From Patescibacteria group bacterium (GTDB lineage Bacteria; Patescibacteriota; Patescibacteriia; Magasanikbacterales; GWA2-37-8), in assembly GCA_004321885.1 (NCBI GenBank), contig SCQK01000001.1:1-55574 (forward strand): a stretch of 55,574 nucleotides of DNA, in the 5' to 3' direction. The notes under the pieces are model-generated. The model searched no databases, had not been told where the DNA came from, and saw only the letters and a list, made by a program, of their open reading frames with translations. Within the stretch, counting starts at the first letter, position 1; each line of letters begins with the position of its first letter. The translations under genes were made by a program, and so were the position numbers. Below are positions 4,117 through 50,230 of this stretch, piece by piece.

Positions 4117-5337
4117 CTACGGCTTCGGCGTGGACTTCTCGGCCTCCACCACCTGGCGCGCCTTCTCCTCCGCCGCTTTGCGCACCTTCTCCGCCTCCGC
4201 TCTGATCTGTTCGGCTTTCTCGTCCGGATCGGACGAGATTTTCACACCCGCCCAGCCGCCCGTCACGTCACGATTCCGCCGCTTGGGCAACGGAGGCGGC
4301 TTGCGCTTGTCCTCGGCCGGTTGTACTGGCCCTGTGGGGTCGTCCTTGGGCGCTACCTTGTCCGCCTCCGCGCAGACATTATTGATGGCCTTGTCCACCG
4401 CTGCCACCTCGTCTGCACTGTCTTTCGGCGGTAGCTCGGCTATCATGCGCAGACCGGTCGGCGTACACGCCTCATCGAACTCGGCCACTGCCTCGGGCAC
4501 TCCCTCACCTGCTTTTTCCTCACCCGCGACCATCTCGTCGGTCACCACTACCTCGCCAGGCGCAGGCTCGTTCTTGACTGACTCTGGCCCTAGCCAGCCA
4601 TATTTCACGACCACTGTGTCCCAGACCTGCATCAGCACCGTCACTTCCAGGTACTCGACAAGAACCTTGGGCTCCAGCAGGGGATGGCTCAACAGAACCT
4701 TATCATCCCAGGTCTGGCCGGCCCTTCCCAAGCGCATGGAGTGCCTCATCACCTCGGCTGTCAGAGCCGGCGGCAACTTGGCGACCTGCTCGGCGTTAAG
4801 CAAGCCGATCGCCTCAACCACCTCGCAGTGAGTATTCTTGCCGGCGCTGACATCTTCCAGCAAGTCCAACTCCAGTATGAGGTCAACCAGCTGGTAGGCG
4901 AGTCGCTTGTGCTCTTTGGTGTCCTTCTCCCGCCAACCGCTCTGGAAGAGCAACTCCTGGATGAGTCGGGCCGGCAGGTAACGAACGGCATCATCGGCCG
5001 GCATAGCCTTGACGATCTGGTCCGGGTTCGTATCCCCCACTTCCAATGCCCCCTCCAGGCCCTCGCCTGCCCACTGCCAAGACTGGCGGCAGACAGTCGC
5101 ACGTGCACCAGATACGGCGCAAGCCTTGAGAATGTCTGCCCGTCTTCCCGGCTGGTCAGCCAACCCCTCCATTATGGCCATGGGCGGAAACTTGGCCACG
5201 ATGTCGCTCGTGGTGAGCACGGTCGCTCCGGTCACGAGCGCTAGGTCCAGCGCGCTGGCCAACAGCTTCTCCGCTGGCCTCAGGTCCCGGGGTTTCTTTG
5301 TCCCAATCGGAACGCTCTCTCCGCTTTCCTTCATCAT
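4117..5337 (-). CDS. hypothetical protein (406 aa) in a GC-rich islet
   Basis: Strong RBS (AAGGAGAAA before ATG). GC content is well above the flanking DNA. The product is acidic with an A/E/K-rich C-terminal low-complexity tail. I recognised no family. Confidence 0.6.
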   Translation of the reverse strand: MMKESGESVPIGTKKPRDLRPAEKLLASALDLALVTGATVLTTSDIVAKFPPMAIMEGLADQPGRRADILKACAVSGARATVCRQSWQWAGEGLEGALEVGDTNPDQIVKAMPADDAVRYLPARLIQELLFQSGWREKDTKEHKRLAYQLVDLILELDLLEDVSAGKNTHCEVVEAIGLLNAEQVAKLPPALTAEVMRHSMRLGRAGQTWDDKVLLSHPLLEPKVLVEYLEVTVLMQVWDTVVVKYGWLGPESVKNEPAPGEVVVTDEMVAGEEKAGEGVPEAVAEFDEACTPTGLRMIAELPPKDSADEVAAVDKAINNVCAEADKVAPKDDPTGPVQPAEDKRKPPPLPKRRNRDVTGGWAGVKISSDPDEKAEQIRAEAEKVRKAAEEKARQVVEAEKSTPKP

Positions 5338-12225: not shown

Positions 12226-13345
12226 GCCGTATCGGCATGACGATGTAGAGATAGCTGTCGTCGCCCTTGGGCGAGAGCACGCACGGGCTGTCGCCGTTTA
12301 TCACTTTCAGCTGGGTGGCGTCGGTTTCCATATTATTGAGCCCATCTAACACATAGCGGTGGTTGAGCAGGATGGAATTTTGCTCGCCTTTAACATCCGC
12401 GCTTAACTCGGATTTATGGTCTCCGGTCTGGGTGGAAGCCGAGGAAATAGCGACCAGCGACTGCTCGGGTTTTAGGTCAAAAGTAATGGCATTTATGCCT
12501 GTGGTGGTGAAAATTCCGGCCGCTTTTATCTCTTTGGCCAACTGGCTGGTGGAAAACTCGGCCGTGGTCTTAAACTCCCTGGGGATAATCTGTGTATAAT
12601 CCGGATATTGCCCTTCAATTAGCCGAGAAATCACCTCCACATCATTGTAGCGCAGAACGATTTGATTCTCATTTATCATCAAACGGGTGCTTTTTTCAGT
12701 CTCAAAACCCCCAATGAGGGCCAAAACCCGCGATAATTCCTGGGTGGTGCGGCCCGGCACGATAATTTTCACTTTTTCCTCGCCCTGGGCCAGCTTGATT
12801 TTTTTTTCAGCCAACCGGTAGCTGTCGGTGGCCGCCAAGGTCAGATACCCGGGCTTATCATTATTAAAATCAAACAAAATTCCGGAAAGCTCTGGCCTGA
12901 TTTCGTTTTTGCTGGCTGACTGGCTTACCTGATCCAGCCCTCTTTTTAAGATTTCCGCGTCCAGGGTAAAACCCTTGCCCTCGGTTACAGCCGGCAGTAG
13001 GGGAAATTCATCGGCCGGCGAGCCCTTGATTTTAGTGGCTGTTTTTCCGCATACCACTTCCAACTCGCTTCCGTTTAGGCTTAACTCCACTTTTTCATCA
13101 GACAATAAATTGACAAAATCATTCAAAGTGCGCGCCGGCACGGTGAAGGCCCCGGGCGCTTCTATTTTGGCCCGCAGTTGCGAAATGACGGCCACCTCTA
13201 AATTGGTGGTGAGCATTTCCACTTTCTGCTCGCTGGCCTTGATAAGCACGTTGCCTAATATGGGCAGACTGATGTTTTTTCCGGCTACGCCGCTGACAGC
13301 GGCCAGTGTGTGCGATAGATTCTCCTTGGTGCAGATAAATTTCAT
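12221..13345 (-). CDS. dnaN: DNA polymerase III beta sliding clamp
   Basis: Three-domain clamp architecture, with N-terminus MKFICTKENLSHTLAAVSGVAGKNISLPILGNVLI. Confidence 0.9.
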   Translation of the reverse strand: MKFICTKENLSHTLAAVSGVAGKNISLPILGNVLIKASEQKVEMLTTNLEVAVISQLRAKIEAPGAFTVPARTLNDFVNLLSDEKVELSLNGSELEVVCGKTATKIKGSPADEFPLLPAVTEGKGFTLDAEILKRGLDQVSQSASKNEIRPELSGILFDFNNDKPGYLTLAATDSYRLAEKKIKLAQGEEKVKIIVPGRTTQELSRVLALIGGFETEKSTRLMINENQIVLRYNDVEVISRLIEGQYPDYTQIIPREFKTTAEFSTSQLAKEIKAAGIFTTTGINAITFDLKPEQSLVAISSASTQTGDHKSELSADVKGEQNSILLNHRYVLDGLNNMETDATQLKVINGDSPCVLSPKGDDSYLYIVMPIRQ

Positions 13346-13564
13346 GACAGTTGGATTAAATATATTTATATAATAGTAATAATAATACTGTGGAAAAAGG
13401 GGATAAATGTCAAGAGTGTTTTATCTTAGCCAATTTTAAGGAATTTGTCTTGTGGATAATTTTTTACAACCTGTGCGAGAAAGTTGATAAGTTTTACCCG
13501 CTGGTTCAGACCCTGTGGACAATTATATTTTTTATCCACAACTTATCGGCCAGCCGTTCACAGG
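13346..13564. other. candidate oriC: DnaA-box cluster plus AT-rich DUE between dnaA and dnaN
   Basis: Perfect boxes TGTGGATAA (13450-13458) and TTATCCACA (13531-13539), near-boxes tgtggaaaa (13388) and tgtggacaa (13514), and the AT-rich run aatatatttatataatagtaataataata at 13353-13387. Confidence 0.6.
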
Positions 13565-14953
13565 TTACGCGCTCACGTAAAATTTCTGTTTGATAAACTC
13601 CATCTCTTGTTTTAAGCGCAAGTCGTTTTCTGTTTTTTTGCCGATTAGTTTGTCGGCGTGCATGGCTGTGGTGTGGTCGCGGCCACCCAACTCGTCGCCA
13701 ATGGCTGGGTAAGACATGTTTAGCTCACTGCGCATCAGGTGCATAATAATCTGGCGCGGCGCGGAGAAGCGCTTTTCGCGGCTCTGGCCCAGAATATCAC
13801 CCGAGGCAATGCCATAATAGGCGCAGACCGCGTCTATGATTTGTTGCGGGGTTACTGACCTCTGCATCAGCCGCGCTTCCATGCTGGCCAGCAAGTTTTT
13901 TACCGAATCCGGCGTGGGCTCGGTGTTTTTCAGTTGGTGGAAAGCCATGATTTTGTTGAGCGCTCCTTCCAGTTCGCGAATGTTTTTTTGGATAATGGTA
14001 GCCACCAGGCGCAAGATGTCTTCGGTGAGGGCGTAATTTTTCTCGGCGCACTTTTTTTGCAAAATGGCGATGCGAGTTTCCAAATCCGGCGGGGCTACAT
14101 CCACAATCATGCCCCACTCAAAGCGCGATTTCAGGCGGTCTTCCAGGGCCGGGATGGCCTTGGGTGGTCGGTCCGAGGTCATCACCACCTGCTTGTTCTG
14201 TTGGTGCAGTTCATTGAAGGTATGAAAAAAAGATTCCTGGGTTTTGTCTTTGCCGGAAATGAATTGAATGTCGTCTATGAGAAGCAGATCAATATTGCGG
14301 TAGCGGTTTTGGAAATTTTTGGCATTGCCTTCGCGCACCGAGGAGATGTAGTCGTTGGAAAATTTCTCGGCGCTGGCGTACATGACATTAAAGTGCGGCG
14401 CGTTTTTCAAAATATGATTGCCAATGGCTTGCAGGAGGTGGGTTTTGCCCAATCCCACCCCACCGTAAATAAAAAGCGGGTTATAGGATTCGCCGGGTTT
14501 GCGCACCACGGCCTGGGCCGCGGCAAAAGCCAGTTCAGTGCCGCTGCCGACCACGAAGTTGTCAAAAATATATTTGGGATTGAGGATGAATTCGCCGCCG
14601 GACTGACCCGTTGGAGGCGCCGGCGTTTCTAACGGGGTTTGGAAAGAATACTCGGCGCGCAGGGCGCCGGCTGCGGCGGCCGGCATGTTTTTGATATTGT
14701 AAATTTTGTATTCCAATTTTTTGATGGGCTTGCCCGTGATACGTTCCATTGATTGCACAATCATGTGGTGATACTTTTTTTCCAGCCAGGCTTTGTTGAA
14801 GGCGCTGGGCACGCAGAGCTCGGCCTGGTTGTCTTGGTAGTTTAGAATTCCGGTATTTTTAAACCAGGTCACGAAGTTTGGTTTAGAAATAGATAACTCT
14901 AATTCTGCCAGGACCGCTTGCCAGATGTCGGTGGTGTTCATACAAACATCCAA
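13565..14953 (-). CDS. dnaA: chromosomal replication initiator DnaA
   Basis: AAA+ Walker A GGVGLGKTHLL and a C-terminal DnaA-box-binding domain. TTG start. Confidence 0.95.
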   Translation of the reverse strand: MDVCMNTTDIWQAVLAELELSISKPNFVTWFKNTGILNYQDNQAELCVPSAFNKAWLEKKYHHMIVQSMERITGKPIKKLEYKIYNIKNMPAAAAGALRAEYSFQTPLETPAPPTGQSGGEFILNPKYIFDNFVVGSGTELAFAAAQAVVRKPGESYNPLFIYGGVGLGKTHLLQAIGNHILKNAPHFNVMYASAEKFSNDYISSVREGNAKNFQNRYRNIDLLLIDDIQFISGKDKTQESFFHTFNELHQQNKQVVMTSDRPPKAIPALEDRLKSRFEWGMIVDVAPPDLETRIAILQKKCAEKNYALTEDILRLVATIIQKNIRELEGALNKIMAFHQLKNTEPTPDSVKNLLASMEARLMQRSVTPQQIIDAVCAYYGIASGDILGQSREKRFSAPRQIIMHLMRSELNMSYPAIGDELGGRDHTTAMHADKLIGKKTENDLRLKQEMEFIKQKFYVSA

Positions 14954-16287: not shown

Positions 16288-17349
16288 TTAATCAATACCG
16301 AGAACATCCCTTTTGAACTCATTCACACCAAATGCGCGACAAAATTTTTCTTCGGTGCCAATAAATTCTCCATGAGGTATCAGACCCTTTAACAAGGGTT
16401 TATTTTTTATTCTCTCCAACATGGCCAACGATGGCCGCCAGTCCAAACCTGCTGCTTCGGATAATTTTTTTAATTGATAACATTCCTGCCAAAGCACCAT
16501 CTTTTTCAGTCCTTCAGAATCTTTTTTTCTGATGTCGCGGTATGTTAGCTCGGCTTTTTCCGCCAACTCATCTATTAGATTAGCAATTTCATTCTCGTTC
16601 AACCACTTGCCATCGGCTTGCACGGCAAATCGCCTCAGTCCGGAGACGGGATTTCCAGATTGAACGAGAGTGTGACAGCCAACGCCGGCGATTTTCCATT
16701 CAACATTTTGGAAGATACGATATATAAATAGCTCCTTAATTGTTGATTGGTGTTTTTCGGGCCACAATTCTCGGGTTTGTAAGTTTGGGAAATGAGTTAT
16801 AAGGAGAACCTCGTTGCCTATTTTATATGGACCATAATTATCCCAGCCGTTATCAGTCGCAAGATCGTTGTATAGGCCGTGCACGAGCGAACCAGCGCTT
16901 GTTATCAAGCGGCCGCAGAGACGCGCGGATTCTTGTGAGCCGTTTTGCCAATTTATTCGAAGCAGGATTTGTGAAGTCTCTTCCTTATTATGGAAGGGCG
17001 CGCTGTTTTCCGCGAAAGGATCATTTGGGCTGCTTTCTTCAAGCATGCGCGCCAAAAAATTTGAAACAAAGTAAAAATCAGACCAATTTTTATTTGGCGT
17101 GGTGCGCCAGCTGGAAATAATTTTTAAGATTATGGCGCGCATGCTTGAAGGGGTAGGCAGAATATTGCGTACGTCATTAAATGTTTTTTTATCCGCCTCA
17201 ATTTTTTTGAGGCAATTACAAATATGTTCCACCCATAAATCATACCAAAGCGGATAGAAATGGAAAAAATCAAGCGGTTGGAACGCTTCTAAAACATTGC
17301 CCGCGAATGCTTGGTGCATTCCCTTGTTGAATTTATCAATCCAATACAT
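16288..17349 (-). CDS. hypothetical protein (353 aa), translationally coupled to the upstream swivel-domain gene
   Basis: Overlaps the upstream ORF by 14 nt. I recognised no motifs. Confidence 0.55.
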   Translation of the reverse strand: MYWIDKFNKGMHQAFAGNVLEAFQPLDFFHFYPLWYDLWVEHICNCLKKIEADKKTFNDVRNILPTPSSMRAIILKIISSWRTTPNKNWSDFYFVSNFLARMLEESSPNDPFAENSAPFHNKEETSQILLRINWQNGSQESARLCGRLITSAGSLVHGLYNDLATDNGWDNYGPYKIGNEVLLITHFPNLQTRELWPEKHQSTIKELFIYRIFQNVEWKIAGVGCHTLVQSGNPVSGLRRFAVQADGKWLNENEIANLIDELAEKAELTYRDIRKKDSEGLKKMVLWQECYQLKKLSEAAGLDWRPSLAMLERIKNKPLLKGLIPHGEFIGTEEKFCRAFGVNEFKRDVLGID

Positions 17350-17668
17350 AGACTTCTCCCTTGGTGCCGTCCACTTTTATTAGGTCCCCGTTTTTAATAA
17401 TAGCAGTGGCGTCTTTTGTGTTTACCACGCACGGGATTCCCATCTCTCGACTCAAAATTGCCGGGTGGCTGGTAATGCCGCCGATATCGGTGATGATTGC
17501 CGCGGTTTTTATCATGGCGCCAACCATGGTCGGGTCTGTTAAAACAGCGACAAGAATGTCGCCATTGGAAAAATTTTTTGTGTCGTCGCCGGAGTTTAGT
17601 ATTCTTGCCCGGCCTTGAGTGGTTCCCTGGCTGGCGGCAATTCCGGAAAGAATTTTTCTTTCGGTCAT
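17336..17668 (-). CDS. stand-alone PEP-utilising-enzyme mobile (phosphohistidine swivel) domain protein
   Basis: ILVAVLTDPTMVGAMIKTAAIITDIGGITSHPAILSREMGIPCVVN...GDLIKVDGTKGEVYVL matches the swivel-domain consensus, including the catalytic His in TSH. Confidence 0.75.
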   Translation of the reverse strand: MTERKILSGIAASQGTTQGRARILNSGDDTKNFSNGDILVAVLTDPTMVGAMIKTAAIITDIGGITSHPAILSREMGIPCVVNTKDATAIIKNGDLIKVDGTKGEVYVLD

Positions 17669-17712
17669 ATGCGGGAGTGAGTAAATTTTTTTATGCGACT
17701 ATTAAATCGGGC

Positions 17713-18996
17713 CTACTGCAGTAGGTCGTCAAGTTCGCATGCAAGCAGGGCTGATTTGTTTAATAATATCTGCTCATTTGGATTTAATTTGTCCGCTGTC
17801 ATTCTTATAACTTTGGTTGCAATTCCATTCCCGAGCATTACGTTGTTTGTTTTTTTTAGGTAATCCTCATTTTTTTTATTAAAAAGCGAGGCATACTTTT
17901 TTAATTTTTTTTGAGTCGCGGAGTTTGAACGGGCGTCATTGCCGGAGAATTCAATTTTTTTATCAATTTTTTTATCTATTTCTATTGGCAGGTCTCCTTC
18001 TCTAAATTCAATCCAGTAGTCGCTGGTGGCATAAATAATTTTAACAGCGCTACCTTCTTCCGTCGCGTATCTAAAAATAAAAGAAAAATTTTCAGTGTGA
18101 AAATCCTGGTGAATGGAAATTTTTTCCAGTTCTTTAACGGTGTGGATTTCATAATCGTCTAAAAGCTGCCGATAACTTTCACGCCAATTTTTTAGCCAGT
18201 TTTTGATATAGGTCTGATTCACGAATAATGGCGAAAGATCGTTATTGAGATTTTCATCACTCACCCTATTCATTTGTATGGTCAGTTTATCAAAAAGAGT
18301 TCGCACACCCTTCACCTCAATATTTTTCGCCGTTAGGTAATCAAAATCCGGCACGATTTTTTTGCTCATGTACCAAAGTAAATCATAAATATCCCGCCCC
18401 TTTTCTTCATAAATAGCGTCTCCTACGCCGCGCGTGCCGCGCAAAAAAATAGCGGCTAATTTGCTGGCCATCAAGGCGGACATGTTGTAAGTTAAGATGA
18501 CAAAAGAAAGCTGGCCATGGTTTATTGGGCGCCGATCAGTGACTGTCTTTGGAGCGCTAAAATGGTTGAGGTCTATTTTTACGTGCACCTGATTGGAGGG
18601 ATGGCCGAGATTGAGTTCGTTGCCGACATGAAATTTCAAAAGCAATCCGCGGCCATTGTTGATCTTAGTGGTCAGAAAATCGGAATTGGCTCCATACGTA
18701 TTTATGAAATATTTTTCAATTTCATTTTTTAATTTTTCCAAGAATTTATCCGTTACTTCGCCAATAACTTCAAAATCCAAATCCTCGGACATGCGGTCAA
18801 GTCCGTGGATTACGCGCAGAGCCGACCCGCCATACATAGTCCATTGGCTGTACTGGGCGTGGTGATAAATAAAATTGAGAACATAATACTGCAGTTCTTC
18901 TTTGAGAGAGACGCGCCGCGTCATGGCGTCTAGGCCGCCATAGGCGGCAAGGTCATCAAGCTTTTTTTTCAGAACCATTGTTATTTGTTCGCTCAT
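17713..18996 (-). CDS. abiEii: AbiEii/AbiGii-family nucleotidyltransferase toxin (type IV TA / abortive infection) with a ~130-aa C-terminal extension
   Basis: MYGGSALRVIHGLDRMSEDLDFEV is the DUF1814 NTase motif. Overlaps abiEi by 4 nt. Confidence 0.8.
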   Translation of the reverse strand: MSEQITMVLKKKLDDLAAYGGLDAMTRRVSLKEELQYYVLNFIYHHAQYSQWTMYGGSALRVIHGLDRMSEDLDFEVIGEVTDKFLEKLKNEIEKYFINTYGANSDFLTTKINNGRGLLLKFHVGNELNLGHPSNQVHVKIDLNHFSAPKTVTDRRPINHGQLSFVILTYNMSALMASKLAAIFLRGTRGVGDAIYEEKGRDIYDLLWYMSKKIVPDFDYLTAKNIEVKGVRTLFDKLTIQMNRVSDENLNNDLSPLFVNQTYIKNWLKNWRESYRQLLDDYEIHTVKELEKISIHQDFHTENFSFIFRYATEEGSAVKIIYATSDYWIEFREGDLPIEIDKKIDKKIEFSGNDARSNSATQKKLKKYASLFNKKNEDYLKKTNNVMLGNGIATKVIRMTADKLNPNEQILLNKSALLACELDDLLQ

Positions 18997-19607
18997 ACGA
19001 ATTTGCTGATTAGTGAATAAAATTTTTTCTGCTCTCCCGCCTCCATTTCATCAATATCAATTCGCAATTCCTTAGTTAACTTTTTAATCCCAGCCAATTT
19101 TTTGATGCCGCGGAACTGGCGAGTTCGGAAATACAATAAATCAAACAAGGCCTTGGCCGGAGAAGCGATAAAAAAATCAAATTTGCCTTTGAATAAAGAA
19201 AAGCCGGAAAATGATTCGTTATTTATGGACTGGTAAGCAAAATTACCGGCTTTTGATTCGTAGTCTCTCGTAACCTTGGGAGTAACCGAAGTAATGGTGT
19301 GTATCGCTTCGGTGGCCAGATTATAATACTGCAAAGCGGCCCAGGAACTTACATATGATGGGCTGCGGATAATATTTGCGAGAAAAAAAGAATACGAGAT
19401 ATCTAACCGGTTTTTTTCAAAATAATCATCCGAAACATATAGGCCCCTTTTGAGCCGCAGAATTTCCTTGTATTTCAAAAATCGGCTGATGTAGGTGTCG
19501 GTCGTGGTTTTGGCGAGCCCCATCTGGCTGGCGAGCTGGTAGATAGTATCTTTGCTGAAGTGGGGCAATGAATTTAGCTGTATTAAGAGGTTTTTCTTGC
19601 TTTTCAT
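18993..19607 (-). CDS. abiEi: AbiEi-family antitoxin / transcriptional regulator (type IV TA)
   Basis: N-terminal wHTH-like region, ~200 aa, directly upstream of and overlapping abiEii. A TTGACA-N17-TACGAT promoter lies upstream on the minus strand. Confidence 0.75.
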   Translation of the reverse strand: MKSKKNLLIQLNSLPHFSKDTIYQLASQMGLAKTTTDTYISRFLKYKEILRLKRGLYVSDDYFEKNRLDISYSFFLANIIRSPSYVSSWAALQYYNLATEAIHTITSVTPKVTRDYESKAGNFAYQSINNESFSGFSLFKGKFDFFIASPAKALFDLLYFRTRQFRGIKKLAGIKKLTKELRIDIDEMEAGEQKKFYSLISKFV

Positions 19608-19682
19608 ATATATAACAATATCGTATCATATCTGAAATATGCTGTCAAGGGCCATTAAAGAGGTATTGTTTTGGGGAGATAA

Positions 19683-20540
19683 TCATTCCACCAGCTTCAA
19701 GAGTCGTTCGTGCGAGGCGCTGTTACTGGCGATAAGCTCGGTGTCGGTGAGCTGCCAATCCTGGCCCGCGAAGTTGGTGACCCGACCGCCGGCCGAGCGC
19801 ACCAAAAGCACGCCGGGAAGCACATCCCACGGGTGGATTTCGCTCATTACACAGCCGTGGGCACGGCCGCAAGCCACATACGACATTTCTATGCCCGCCG
19901 AAGACAAGATTCTGAAGCGGGTTGTTTTTGTATTGAGCCGTTCAATAATTTTGAGGAGATGCTTTTGCGCCGCGTCCGAGTGGCCGCCGCAAAATAAAAA
20001 CATCTCTTTGTCGCCGTGGTTATTATTGCCTGCGACGTGAATTTTTTGCTTATTCAAATACGCGACGCCCTTGTCGCTCCAAAAAATTTCCTTGTCCATG
20101 GGTATGCCGATTACTCCGATGTCAATCGTGTCGCGGTCGGCGCGCGACAGGCAGGTGGCAAACAGACGAATGCCAAAGGCAAAATTGGTGGTGCCGTCCA
20201 GCGGGTCTATGAACCACATTTTTTCACCCGGGTTGTCTATGGGCCGGTCTTCCTCGCTGGTGATATCGTCGCTCGGGAAATGCTTGAGCAGTTCGGCGGT
20301 GATAAATTTGTTGGCGCTGAAATCCGCGTCAGTGACAATTTCCTCGCCTTTTTTCAGCTTCACATGGTCCAAACCGAATTTTTGGAATTTTTTGGCCAGC
20401 AGTTTATTGGTTTTTTGCACGATTTTTATGGCGATTTTGAGGTCTTTGGTCATAATTGTCATTCTGAGCACATTCGCTCCGCTCAGTGTAAACTCCGCGA
20501 AGAATCCCTGCGCTTCGCGTTTGTTTAAGGGATTCCTCAC
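19683..20540 (-). CDS. suhB: inositol monophosphatase family protein
   Basis: Contains the WFIDPLDGTTNF motif and the rest of the IMPase fold motifs. GTG start. Confidence 0.8.
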   Translation of the reverse strand: MRNPLNKREAQGFFAEFTLSGANVLRMTIMTKDLKIAIKIVQKTNKLLAKKFQKFGLDHVKLKKGEEIVTDADFSANKFITAELLKHFPSDDITSEEDRPIDNPGEKMWFIDPLDGTTNFAFGIRLFATCLSRADRDTIDIGVIGIPMDKEIFWSDKGVAYLNKQKIHVAGNNNHGDKEMFLFCGGHSDAAQKHLLKIIERLNTKTTRFRILSSAGIEMSYVACGRAHGCVMSEIHPWDVLPGVLLVRSAGGRVTNFAGQDWQLTDTELIASNSASHERLLKLVE

Positions 20541-21394
20541 CCCTTTGGGGTTCGGAATGACAGTGAGCGAAGTTTCTTCAAAGTTTTTAGATCCTCCCCT
20601 ACCTTGTCATGCTCGGTTTCCAGCACGAAGTTGATTTTTTGCAGGCGTTTGTCCGAGAGCAGGGCGCTGAAGCCGGGCAAGCCGATAAGCCCGTCGCCGA
20701 TATGCTCGTGGCGGTCGCGGCGGGAAGCGAATTCGGTCTTGGAATCATTGCAGTGCGACAGTTTTAGTTTTTCCAAGCCGATGATTTTATCAAATTTTTT
20801 CAAAGTTTCGCCTACGGCTTCGGCCGAGCGTAAATCATAGCCGCTGGCAAAAGCGTGCTGGGTGTCAAAGCACACGCCGATGCCGTATTTTTTCAGTTTG
20901 GGGTGGAAAATTATTTCCGCGATTTCTTCAAAGGTATCGCCGATTATTTCGCCGGTTCCGGCTGACATTTCTATCAGAAATTTAGCCGTGCCTTTGTATC
21001 CGTTAAGTATTTTTTCTAACCCTTCCACTAATTGCGTATAGCCCTTTTTTGCGCCCAGGTCTTTGTAGCTACCCAAATGAGTCATTAAGTACTTGGCGCC
21101 CAGTATTGACGCGCGTTCCAATTCCTGCCGCACTACGCCGACAGACGCGTGCTTGACGCGCGGATTGGCCGAGGCAAAGTTAATAAAATATGGAGTGTGA
21201 ACATAGCACTCTTTTTGTTTGGCCAGTTTGAGGTTTTTCTTGAATTCTTTCGCCACCGCCTCATCGCAGGGCGGCACCCACCCGCCCTGGGGCGAGCGCG
21301 TGAACATCTGAAAAACCTCGCAGCCCAGGCGGGCGGCGTTCGTCGGTGCATTGGGCAGACCGCCGGCAATAGATACATGAGCGCCAAAAAGCAT
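20537..21394 (-). CDS. nfo: endonuclease IV (AP endonuclease family 2)
   Basis: MLFGAHVSIAGG...CFDTQHAFASGYD...HCNDSK. The internal Met is preferred as the start, because the longer ORF running to 21439 would overlap tig. Confidence 0.85.
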   Translation of the reverse strand: MLFGAHVSIAGGLPNAPTNAARLGCEVFQMFTRSPQGGWVPPCDEAVAKEFKKNLKLAKQKECYVHTPYFINFASANPRVKHASVGVVRQELERASILGAKYLMTHLGSYKDLGAKKGYTQLVEGLEKILNGYKGTAKFLIEMSAGTGEIIGDTFEEIAEIIFHPKLKKYGIGVCFDTQHAFASGYDLRSAEAVGETLKKFDKIIGLEKLKLSHCNDSKTEFASRRDRHEHIGDGLIGLPGFSALLSDKRLQKINFVLETEHDKVGEDLKTLKKLRSLSFRTPKG

Positions 21395-21411
21395 AAAGAA
21401 GTAAATGCGCG

Positions 21412-22692
21412 CTAATTCAGGACTTTCTCTTTCAGCCATTGTACCACTTTTCTGTTCCCAATGGTAATGGCGATGGTATTTATTACTTCGGGTTTTTTCA
21501 AATTTTCTTCCACGTTCCGGTCGTCTTTGTAGCTGTTTTTTATCAGTTCAATTTCTTTCTCAATATCTTCCTTGCTGGCGCCGATGTTTTGCTCTTTGGC
21601 CACTTCCCTGGAGATCAAAGCCGCTTTCACCCGCTTGGCCGCTTGTTCGGCGAAGTCATTGTGTATTTCTTGCTCGGTTTTTTTCAGGTCAGCCAAATAT
21701 TTTTCCATAGTAATGCCCTGATGTTCCAAGGCGTGCTTAAGCTCATGAAACATTTTGTTTTTTTCCGCGTTAAGCAAGACCTCTGGGATGTCGCCGAACT
21801 CGCTCGCTTCTATCAGCTTGTCAAACATCTCAATTTCCAGCCGCTGGTCTTCTTTTTGTTCGGCTTCTTTGGCCAGATTTTCTTTCAAAATCCCTTTCAG
21901 TTTATCCAAACTTTCCTGCCCCAGGGCTTTGGCGAAGGACTCGTCAATGAGTGGGTATTGCAATTCAAAAACATCGTTGATTTTGATTTTGAAATCAATG
22001 TTTTTGCCGGCCAGATGCTTTTGGTAGTGGGCCTCGGGGAATTTAAGGGCGAATTCCTTGGTGTCGTCTTTTTTAAGACCCACCAATTGTTCGGCCAAGC
22101 CCGGAATATAGTGGGGTTCGGCCAGATAGACGGCGTGATTCTGGGCGTGTCCGCCTTCCACCGGCACTTTGTCTAAAAACATTTCCATGTTTACGACCAC
22201 CTTGTCTTCTTTGGCGGCCGCGTCGTTTTTGAGCGCCTCCTTGCCTTGCATTTTTTTCAAATTTTCCAGCACTTCGTTTACTTGCGCTTCGCTCACTTCC
22301 TTGGTTTGCTTCTTGATTTTTATTTTCTTCAAATCCCCCAGTTTGATTTTGGGAAACAGCGCCACCACGGCTTTGAAAATCAAATCATTGCCGGGCGCGA
22401 ATTTTTGCAGGGTGATTTGGGGCATGCCGATGGTTTCCAGATTTTCAGTTTTGACAGCCGCGAAGAAATTTTTTTCCACGATGCTTTGCATGGCTTCTTC
22501 CAGAATGCGAATCTCGCCCACCTGTTGTTTGACTAAATCATAGGGGGCTTTGCCAGGTCGGAAGCCGTGTATGGCCGTGCGCTCGGAAATACGAATGGCG
22601 GCGGCTTCCATGTCGGCGCGATAATCGTCGGTTGGCACGGTGATTTCAAATTCCACTTGCGCTTTTTCCAGTTGTTTGAGGGTGTGTTGCAT
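21412..22692 (-). CDS. tig: trigger factor
   Basis: N-terminal ribosome-binding region (GFRPGKAPYDLV), an FKBP-like middle domain and a C-terminal arm. Confidence 0.85.
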   Translation of the reverse strand: MQHTLKQLEKAQVEFEITVPTDDYRADMEAAAIRISERTAIHGFRPGKAPYDLVKQQVGEIRILEEAMQSIVEKNFFAAVKTENLETIGMPQITLQKFAPGNDLIFKAVVALFPKIKLGDLKKIKIKKQTKEVSEAQVNEVLENLKKMQGKEALKNDAAAKEDKVVVNMEMFLDKVPVEGGHAQNHAVYLAEPHYIPGLAEQLVGLKKDDTKEFALKFPEAHYQKHLAGKNIDFKIKINDVFELQYPLIDESFAKALGQESLDKLKGILKENLAKEAEQKEDQRLEIEMFDKLIEASEFGDIPEVLLNAEKNKMFHELKHALEHQGITMEKYLADLKKTEQEIHNDFAEQAAKRVKAALISREVAKEQNIGASKEDIEKEIELIKNSYKDDRNVEENLKKPEVINTIAITIGNRKVVQWLKEKVLN

Positions 22693-24109: not shown

Positions 24110-26095
24110 TTACTTTATTAACAACCCCACAATCAACAGGGCCACGATGTTGGCCACTTTTATCATCGGATTGATGGCCGGGCCGGCCGTGTCTTTGTAT
24201 GGGTCGCCCACGGTATCGCCGGTAACAGCCGCCTGATGAGCGAACGAGCCCTTGCCGCCGTAGTTTCCTTTTTCAATGAATTTTTTGGCGTTGTCCCAGG
24301 CCCCGCCGCCGGTGGTCATGGAAATGGCGACGAACAAGCCGGTGATAATAGTGCCCATCAGCAGTCCGCCCAGGGCTTCTATACCCAAAAACCAACCAAC
24401 CAGCACGGGAATCAACACCGGAATGGCGGCCGGCAATATCATTTGTCCGAGCGCGCCCTTGGTCACGATGTCAGCCGCTTTACTGTAGTCGGGTTTGCCC
24501 GTGCCCTCCATAATTCCGGGGATCTCGCGAAACTGGCGGCGCACTTCTTCCACCACTTTGCCCGCCACTTTGCCGACCGATTCCATCAGCATTGAACCGA
24601 ATAAATACGGCAACAAGCCGCCGATAAACAGCCCGGTCAAAACCCACGGATTATCCAGCATGAATTTTACGCTGTCCGGAAGTTTGTGAGTGAAGTCCGC
24701 GAACAAAACCAGTGAAGCGAGCGCGGCGCTGGCAATGGCATAGCCCTTGGTGACGGCCTTGGTGGTGTTTCCCACCGCGTCCAGGGCGTCGGTTACTTCG
24801 CGCGCCTCGGCCGGCAGTCCGCTCATCTCGGCGATTCCGCCTGCGTTATCTGTAATCGGGCCATAGGCATCTATGGTCACGATAATGCCGGTAAGCGACA
24901 GCATGCTCACGGCGGCTACGGCTACGCCATACAAACCGGCCAGCCAAAAGGCGCCGAGAATTGAAGCGATGATAAGCAAAACAGGCAATGCCGTGGATTG
25001 CATTGATACGGCCAGACCGGCGATGACATTGGTGCCGTGCCCTGTTTCGCTGGCTTTGGCGATGCGTTTAACCGGGTTGTATTTTGTGGAAGTGTAATAC
25101 TCCGTAATCCAAACCATGGCCGCGGCCAGAATCAAACCGATAACTGAGGAAAGGTAAATTCTTGTCACGTCAAAATTTTCCGAACCGCCTATCAGCCAGC
25201 GCGTGATGGGGTAAAAAGCGATGAGCGATAATATGCCCGAAGCAATTAAGCCCTTGTACAGGGCGTTCATGATGTTTTGTTTTTTACCCAGACGGATGAA
25301 GAATGTGCCGATGATGGAAGCGATGATTGAAGCGCCGCCCAAAATCAAGGGATAGATAACAACCTTGTCGTTTCCGACAAATAGCAAACTGCCCAGAACC
25401 ATGGCCGCGATGACAGTAACCGCGTAGGTCTCAAACAAGTCCGCGGCCATGCCCGCGCAGTCGCCCACGTTGTCGCCCACGTTGTCAGCGATAACCGCCG
25501 GGTTGCGCGGGTCGTCTTCGGGGATGCCTTTTTCCACCTTGCCCACCAGGTCAGCGCCCACGTCAGCCGCTTTGGTAAAGATGCCGCCGCCGATACGGGC
25601 AAAAACCGAAATCAAACTGCCGCCGAAACCCAAACCAATGAGCGCGGACAAGTCATGGGTCAAAAGATAAAAACCGGAAACTCCAAGCAAGCCCAGACCC
25701 ACCACCAAGAGGCCGGTGATGGAACCACCGCGCACCGCCACGTTTAACGCTCGTTTTAATCCGGTTTTAGCCGCTTCGCTGGTCTTCAAATTAGCGCGCA
25801 CAGACACGTTCATGCCGATAATGCCGGCCGCGGCTGAAAGCACGGCGCCGACCACAAATCCGAAACCGGTAATCCAGTCCACGAATAAACCAAGTAAAAC
25901 AAAAACAACGAGCGCGACTACGGCGATAGTTTTGTATTGGCGCCCCAAATAGGCCTTGGCGCCTTCTTGGATGGCTTTAGCGACGGCTTTCATTTTTTCG
26001 TCGCCGGCCGGCTGTTTGTTTACCCAAACAATGAGTACCACCCCGTACGCTATGGCCAGCGCCGCCGGCAACAGCGCGAATAACGCGATGAGCAT
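24110..26095 (-). CDS. hppA: membrane-bound H+/Na+-translocating pyrophosphatase
   Basis: [41 protein letters not shown] and ~15 TM helices. Confidence 0.95.
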
Positions 26096-50168: not shown

Positions 50169-50230
50169 TGTGGATAATTGTGGATAAGTCTGTGCATAAG
50201 TGGTGAATTTGTGGGGATATGTGGTTAACG
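50169..50230. promoter_or_regulatory. DnaA-box cluster distant from dnaA
   Basis: Two perfect TGTGGATAA boxes (50169-77 and 50179-87) plus tgtgcataa and tgtggggat, bracketed by two family B copies. An AT-rich stretch follows at ~50440-50590. Confidence 0.5.

Follow-up and report, generated by a model that had tools for sequence, protein, structure and literature searches.

A Coupled Swivel-Carrier and 353-aa Protein Gene Pair Adjacent to a Mobile AbiE Cassette in Patescibacteria: Candidate Core of a Split Phosphotransfer Enzyme

Organization of the Locus

The window analyzed here, that is, the whole stretch of 55,574 nucleotides, covers positions 1 to 55,574 of contig SCQK01000001.1 (assembly GCA_004321885.1) from a Patescibacteria group bacterium. 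It carries an AbiE abortive-infection cassette (abiEi and abiEii), followed by the genes of a stand-alone phosphohistidine swivel carrier of 110 amino acids (aa) and of a 353-aa protein. The original prediction, made from the sequence, had proposed that these four genes may form an extended defence or phosphotransfer cassette. Their arrangement was found as described there, with all four open reading frames (ORFs) on the minus strand, abiEi and abiEii overlapping by 4 nt, the swivel gene starting 44 bp after the stop codon of abiEii, and the swivel and 353-aa genes overlapping by 14 nt. The reading that we favour, however, is that two independent units stand side by side here by chance, and that the swivel/353 pair is probably the core of a split enzyme for phosphotransfer resembling phosphoenolpyruvate (PEP) synthase. 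In the source records the window is a MAG contig of Patescibacteria (locus tags EPN28_00075 to 00085). The features of the locus are as follows.

19620..19648, minus strand: promoter-like site of abiE (TTGACA, 17 nt, TACGAT, extended TG; 10/12 matches, the best promoter-like score in the region)
18993..19607, minus strand: abiEi, 204-aa antitoxin and regulator (PADLOC AbiEi, E=5.5e-36)
17713..18996, minus strand: abiEii, 427-aa DUF1814 nucleotidyltransferase toxin (Pfam PF08843, E=3.4e-21; PADLOC AbiEii, E=1.8e-30)
17713-18159, minus strand: conserved extra C-terminal domain of AbiEii (residues ~280-427)
17336..17668, minus strand: stand-alone phosphohistidine swivel carrier, 110 aa (PF00391, E=4.6e-25)
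17465-17467, minus strand: codon of the catalytic His68 of the swivel carrier (T-S-H motif, residues 66-68)
17336..17349, minus strand: swivel/353 overlap of 14 nt, from the swivel stop codon to the start codon of the 353-aa protein (read from the sequence)
16288..17349, minus strand: gene of the 353-aa protein, Patescibacteria-specific family (no matching solved structure)

The AbiE Cassette

The first two genes had been called a canonical abortive-infection pair, and the PADLOC and Pfam matches listed above bear this out; the match of AbiEi to the Pfam model AbiEi_4 was weak (E=0.0085). The family profiles cover residues 47-279 (Pfam) and 17-271 (PADLOC) of AbiEii. The protein contains GGSAL (residues 56-60) with the motif-I serine intact, SEDLDF70, K180 in SKLAA, and DIYDL202, which we take to correspond to the published motifs I-IV. 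By homology, AbiEii would act as a DUF1814 nucleotidyltransferase that arrests growth, and AbiEi would bind and restrain it. In the Streptococcus agalactiae system, the binding of AbiEi has been reported to induce an inactivating auto-phosphorylation of AbiEii, on Thr/Ser (preprint 10.64898/2026.01.19.700257).

The extra C-terminal region that had been noticed in AbiEii proved to be real and conserved. It extends beyond the family profiles by about 145 residues (283-427) and is kept in more than 120 homologues of 420-430 aa that are 69-74% identical, in hosts that include Parcubacteria, Berkelbacteria, Magasanikbacteria, and others. No structural relative of this domain was found. Judged from these homologues, the AbiE subfamily is widespread in Patescibacteria and its toxin has a conserved extra C-terminal domain. 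The AbiE part of the locus is in this sense ordinary, another member of a very abundant Patescibacteria subfamily whose additional toxin domain is unexplained.

When the window was compared with the AbiE cassettes of other Patescibacteria, the DNA was found to be 71-73% identical from window position 19648, the first base of the TTGACA -35 box, to positions 17750-17726, which are still within the last part of abiEii. The cassettes of the window and of loci L037 and L040 are identical in the -35 box and in the spacer/-10 block ATTTCAGATATGATAC, and upstream of the -35 box nothing aligned between the three. Since the similarity is bounded at the -35 box and at the end of abiEii, the mobile unit consists of the promoter, abiEi, and abiEii, with the swivel gene outside. 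Across distant lineages AbiEii remains 69-74% identical, compared to 56% for the best relative of the 353 family and 36-47% for DnaA and trigger factor between genomes of the same kinds. On this comparison, abiEi-abiEii is a self-contained and apparently horizontally mobile cassette with its own promoter (window 19648-17713).

Four AbiE loci were fetched, representing two distinct contexts that were each recovered twice (L037/L038 and L040/L041), and neither a swivel gene nor the swivel/353 pair was beside AbiE in any of the four. In L037/L038 (4394-10143) and L040/L041 (1-11284), genes for a conserved EcoRI-like methylase and for GmrSD follow the 204-aa/427-aa AbiE pair; in its vicinity are HEPN-AbiU2, RhuM, a set of helix-turn-helix, reverse transcriptase, and PD-(D/E)XK genes, and a large serine recombinase. 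These regions are compact defence islands, probably carried by an integrative element.

The Swivel and 353-aa Genes Form a Unit of Their Own

The neighbourhoods of the swivel/353 pair were examined in 31 fetched loci, of which about 28 are distinct. A stand-alone swivel gene stands immediately before a gene of the 353 family in nearly every one of them, and the two overlap by exactly 14 nt in 19 loci. In L005, L007, L018, and L024 they are one single ORF; natural swivel-353 fusion proteins include P0084, P0094, P0102, P0145, and P0182, and three of the 102 homologues of the 353-aa protein are such fusions. The coupling of the two genes that had been proposed from their overlap is thus upheld, and the comparison of loci shows them to be obligately coupled as far as gene order and fusion can tell. 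The 14-nt overlap is likely a translational-coupling junction. Programmed frameshifting at the overlap was considered given the in-frame fusions, and was rejected; there is no slippery heptamer, and termination-reinitiation is simpler.

Neither AbiEi nor AbiEii was detected within 10 kb on either side of the pair in any of the 31 loci (tblastn at 1e-4; profile and phmmer searches at E<=1). In the loci with Pfam annotation, the neighbours of the pair other than the phosphatase and TrmB genes described below were housekeeping or sugar-related genes. The co-occurrence with AbiE or other defence genes that the original prediction had put forward for checking was therefore not observed. Locus L005, from a distant relative, is informative about the history of the window. 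In the window, endonuclease IV (20537-21439), trigger factor (21412-22692), and an H+-pyrophosphatase (24110-26095) stand beside the cassette, and the same genes flank the pair in L005 (2367-10237), where the order is trigger factor and H+-pyrophosphatase, then TrmB, a phosphatase, and the fused swivel-353 gene, then endonuclease IV. The AbiE cassette of the window stands where L005 has TrmB and the phosphatase. Since the flanking genes are the same in the two genomes, we infer an ancestral position for the pair and a later arrival of the AbiE cassette. Together, the swivel and 353-aa genes appear to be a Patescibacteria-specific two-gene operon (17668-16288) that is vertically inherited, and its transcription may rely on read-through from the abiE promoter as a by-product of the insertion.

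These results bear on the proposal of a functional four-gene defence or phosphotransfer cassette, for example one in which the swivel pair modulates the phosphorylation of AbiEii. The genes do lie on one strand, abiEii and the swivel gene are separated by 44 bp with nothing in the gap that resembles a terminator, the window lacks the native upstream partners of the pair, and the neutralization of AbiEii is reported to involve phosphorylation (bioRxiv 10.64898/2026.01.19.700257). Against this stand the counts of 0/31 pair loci with AbiE and 0/4 AbiE loci (two distinct contexts) with the pair, the boundaries of the mobile cassette, which leave out the swivel gene, and the absence of any PADLOC model match for the swivel or the 353-aa protein. 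In addition, an auto-phosphorylation of AbiEii on Thr/Ser that is induced by AbiEi needs no phosphohistidine carrier. We regard the four-gene cassette as very improbable; what survives of that proposal is a phosphotransfer role, which is plausible for the pair alone. Of the two findings that had been named as speaking against the cassette, one was made, as the pair stands in unrelated surroundings elsewhere; the other was not, as the 353-aa protein does not correspond to any known metabolic enzyme. As far as genome comparison goes, the two units have been shown to be independent and merely adjacent, and a gene's position next to a defence cassette on the same strand is no evidence that it belongs there.

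The Swivel Carrier

The 110-aa protein had been described as a mobile domain of PEP-utilising enzymes with its catalytic His, and this description holds: the PF00391 match covers residues 34-104, with His68 in the T-S-H motif. The best NCBIfam match was the swivel (central) segment of PEP synthase (E=1.1e-33), and the protein also scores against the RPH, PigC, and RedH models. Swivel domains do not catalyse a reaction by themselves; they have to move back and forth between two sites. The suggestion that a swivel domain without ATP-grasp or TIM-barrel partners is unusual needs some qualification: stand-alone swivels are common in Patescibacteria, with at least 120 clusters of proteins of 101-127 aa that are 60-71% identical to the window protein. 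Members of the swivel and 353 families are found together on contigs; of the 41 contigs above 5 kb that carry a swivel gene, 23 have the length of a 353-family contig, which serves as a proxy for co-location. We found no relevant literature on swivel domains in Patescibacteria, on PF00391 in defence, or on stand-alone mobile domains.

The 353-aa Protein

The 353-aa protein had no match in Pfam, NCBIfam, PADLOC, PHROGs, or the PDB sequences. Its 102 homologues are 25-56% identical to it (38-56% save for one distant fusion), all the named sources are Patescibacteria, and an exhaustive profile search gave 412 representative clusters. Four of the records (L018, L019, L023, and L026) are titled "uncultured Gammaproteobacteria bacterium" and one swivel protein (P0460) is labelled Nanoarchaeota; faulty labels or binning are a more probable cause than a wider distribution of the family.

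The structure predicted from a 50-sequence alignment is confident and compact, with a predicted local distance difference test (pLDDT) of 92.8 and a predicted template modelling score (pTM) of 0.91. Its N-terminal part is helical, residues 170-245 form a central antiparallel sheet, and further helices make up the C-terminal part. A Foldseek search of this model against the PDB gave no significant match to a solved structure, and the model is not a TIM barrel. The assignment of the protein to an unknown fold thus stood after profile searches without a family and a structure search without a match. Proteins with the START/SRPBCC helix-grip fold make up 14 of the top 50 Foldseek rows, none of them significant, and include TTHA0849, the WhiE and ZhuI cyclases, the catalytic domains of Rieske oxygenases, and the START domain of GRAMD1C. 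Weak as these matches are, their recurrence hints that the central sheet and the long helix may form a pocket for a hydrophobic ligand, and it is a hint of a hydrophobic or aromatic substrate. Two hidden relationships were tried with hhalign, one to an ATP-grasp domain (PPDK_N) and one to the N-terminal domain of P0190-type proteins described below, and both were negative. Among close orthologues the polar residues D27, H30, D110, D162, D166, C225-H226, and Q288-E289 are invariant; across the broad family only P25, D110, D162, G173-P174-Y175, W196, W304, and P306 are conserved above 85%.

One way to account for the pair would be as a decaying remnant, without function, of a fragmented PEP synthase gene. 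The best match of the swivel protein is the central segment of PpsA, the source records name it "pyruvate, water dikinase", and the genomes of Patescibacteria are reduced. Decay is nevertheless hard to reconcile with more than 100 intact orthologous pairs that conserve the start codon, the overlap, and the T-S-H motif, with a compact and highly confident predicted fold for the 353-aa protein, or with its lack of likeness, by sequence, profile, or fold, to the TIM barrel or the ATP-grasp of PpsA. We consider this explanation extremely unlikely.

Genes Accompanying the Pair in Relatives and a Proposed Role in Phosphotransfer

The most constant neighbour of the pair is a gene of the histidine phosphatase type, which adjoins it in 22 of the 25 informative loci. 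Two subgroups match Pfam His_Phos_1 above the gathering score ("up320", E=3.4e-5; the L018 type, E=6.2e-9), and a further family, A2, has no Pfam match and keeps the invariant R-H motif. A divergently transcribed regulator of the TrmB family stands beside the pair in about 11 loci. The ATP-grasp domain is found less often, within 10 kb of the pair in only 3 of the ~28 distinct loci (L011, L015, and L018). In L011 the protein P0111, encoded directly after the swivel gene, is a fusion of a 353-family domain to PPDK_N (E=2e-97); in L015 the phosphatase, swivel, 353-family, and PPDK_N genes stand in a row; and in L018 the fused swivel-353 gene is followed after 2.2 kb by genes for a stand-alone PPDK_N (337 aa, E=3.8e-98) and then a stand-alone swivel (132 aa), at 13245-14596. 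Going by these gene models, the parts of a split dikinase do occur as separate small genes in such genomes.

Other relatives combine the 353 family with further domains. P0178 and P0190 have an N-terminal domain of about 330 aa, a swivel, and a 353-family domain, in this order, and in P0142, P0158, and P0170 the same N-terminal domain is joined to the 353-family domain with no swivel between. This N-terminal domain (residues 1-340) had no Pfam, NCBIfam, or PDB match and is unrelated to PPDK_N or to family A2; it may be an alternative donor-side module. P0103 and P0104 contain 353-family domains in tandem, and in L024 (6774-8213) and L027 (11115-12448) a second, divergent pair of swivel and 353 (~26% identity) adjoins the first. 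From such duplications, the 353 family seems to be diversifying, as is expected of substrate-specific modules. In the 55-kb window itself, PPDK_N is absent (tblastn with the PPDK_N segment of P0111), and no phosphatase, TrmB, or N-terminal-domain genes or remnants were found.

The reading of the pair as the core of a split PEP-synthase-like enzyme is based on the PPDK_N fusions, on the three-module proteins similar to PpsA, and on the swivel and 353-aa genes being obligately coupled. A donor module would phosphorylate His68, the donor being the PPDK_N ATP-grasp where one is encoded beside the pair. From the carrier the phosphate would pass to a substrate bound by the 353-aa subunit, which would replace the PEP/pyruvate TIM barrel; on the domain layout of the relatives, this subunit most likely provides the acceptor site that the TIM barrel gives in PpsA. 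The His_Phos_1-type phosphatase could hydrolyze the product or, by analogy with SixA and its HPt/NPr carriers, reset the swivel carrier. The presence of the phosphatase and TrmB in most relatives suggests a regulated, reversible phosphorylation cycle. We infer both the direction of the phosphate flow and the enzymatic role of the 353-aa protein. As a more specific and more tentative proposal, about which we are somewhat doubtful, the pair could be the core of an undescribed, Patescibacteria-specific class of dikinase that is paired with His_Phos_1, controlled by TrmB, and phosphorylates a small molecule.

The same neighbours can be read in another way, with the swivel protein as an HPr/NPr-like carrier that is phosphorylated by a dikinase or an enzyme-I-like protein encoded elsewhere and controls the activity of the 353-aa protein by binding to it or phosphorylating it, as a phospho-relay or regulatory module. 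In such a relay His_Phos_1 would reset the carrier as SixA does, and TrmB would link the module to the supply of sugars. An ATP-grasp is missing beside the pair in most loci, the most constant neighbour belongs to the superfamily of SixA, the divergent TrmB regulator recurs, and the residues that the broad 353 family conserves do not look like a catalytic set, all of which would suit a relay. The covalent fusions of the 353 family with the swivel and with PPDK_N are, on the other hand, typical of multi-domain enzymes and not of regulators and their targets, the three domains of P0178 and P0190, arranged as in PpsA, agree with an enzyme, and the invariant polar residues of the close orthologues suggest an active site. 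On balance a phospho-relay seems unlikely to us, though it deserves more weight than the other alternatives.

Several observations weigh against an independent swivel/353 enzyme, and they are gathered here. No ATP-grasp or other donor domain lies in the window, and in most relatives none lies within 10 kb of the pair. The residues conserved across the broad family carry no recognizable catalytic signature, and the 353-aa protein could be a regulated target. The fold comparison was made against the PDB only. With regard to the separation of the two units, no terminator-like site lies between abiEii and the swivel gene, so that co-transcription is possible, and the GC content was ambiguous as a marker of the AbiE insertion (0.40 for abiE, 0.48 for the swivel gene, and ~0.50 for the flanks), the 353-aa gene being GC-poor as well (0.42).

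The 353 family, with its 412 clusters, is conserved and unannotated. Its genes are tightly linked to those of a phosphohistidine carrier, and in relatives an ATP-grasp and a histidine phosphatase join them. Patescibacteria have a minimal metabolism and an episymbiont lifestyle, and a lineage-specific phosphotransfer enzyme that is retained despite this minimal metabolism would therefore be a testable lead into their metabolism, detoxification, or signalling.

Other Features of the Window

On one side, the four genes are bordered by dnaN, dnaA, rpmH, rnpA, and yidD, and on the other by an inositol-monophosphatase-like gene and the endonuclease IV, trigger factor, and H+-pyrophosphatase genes already mentioned. 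The window contains 7 matches to the DnaA box, compared to 1.26 expected. Three perfect or near-perfect boxes (TTATCCACA, TTATCCACA, and TTATGCACA) lie within 31 bp on the minus strand (50169-50199), in the stretch of lowest GC of the window (0.397 at 50-51 kb) and 35 kb from dnaA, with tRNA-Arg, tRNA-Ala, and an RmuC gene as neighbours. This cluster could be oriC or a DnaA-titrating site. Two further boxes are in the dnaN-dnaA intergenic region (13451-13459 and 13532-13540). Two large ORFs had no Pfam match at E<=1e-5, one of 406 aa on the minus strand (4117-5337), in the GC-richest patch (0.608 at 4-5 kb), and one of 562 aa on the plus strand (551-2239).

Comparison with Known Systems

The AbiE cassette shares with the AbiE/MenAT systems, including the homologous MenAT of Mycobacterium tuberculosis, a bicistron with a 4-nt overlap, an antitoxin and regulator of the AbiEi type, a DUF1814 toxin with its motifs, and its own promoter. 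It differs in the extra C-terminal domain of ~145 aa of the toxin and in that the subfamily is specific to Patescibacteria. The abiE promoter of S. agalactiae has an inverted-repeat operator, and such an operator was not found at the abiE promoter of the window, where there were no clear inverted repeats but only an AT-rich palindrome at the start codon.

SixA, of the His_Phos_1 superfamily, is a phosphohistidine phosphatase that acts on HPt/NPr carriers. The relatives of the swivel/353 pair resemble SixA systems in having a His_Phos_1-family gene directly upstream of a small phosphohistidine carrier; the phosphatase gene is, however, absent from the window and the family in the relatives is very divergent. 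The combination of an ATP-grasp, a swivel His, and a family-specific substrate module is also seen in rifampin phosphotransferase (RPH), phenylphosphate synthase, the prodigiosin ligases PigC/RedH, and glucan water dikinase, and phenylphosphate synthase is itself a split, multi-subunit enzyme. The 353-aa module has no likeness in sequence or fold to the substrate domains of any of them, and none of these enzymes has a counterpart of the constant His_Phos_1 neighbour.

The closest comparison is with PpsA/PPDK, in which an ATP-grasp, a swivel His, and a PEP/pyruvate TIM barrel follow one another. The T-S-H swivel of the window is closest to the central segment of PpsA, its relatives are fused or adjacent to PPDK_N, and the three-module layout of P0178 and P0190 mirrors that of PpsA. 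The domains of the pair, in contrast, are split into small genes with no ATP-grasp in the window, and the 353-aa domain is found in place of the PEP-utilizers_C TIM barrel. Compared in this way, the swivel/353 pair, whose 353-aa member is uncharacterized and restricted to Patescibacteria, represents a new variation on phosphotransfer of the dikinase type.

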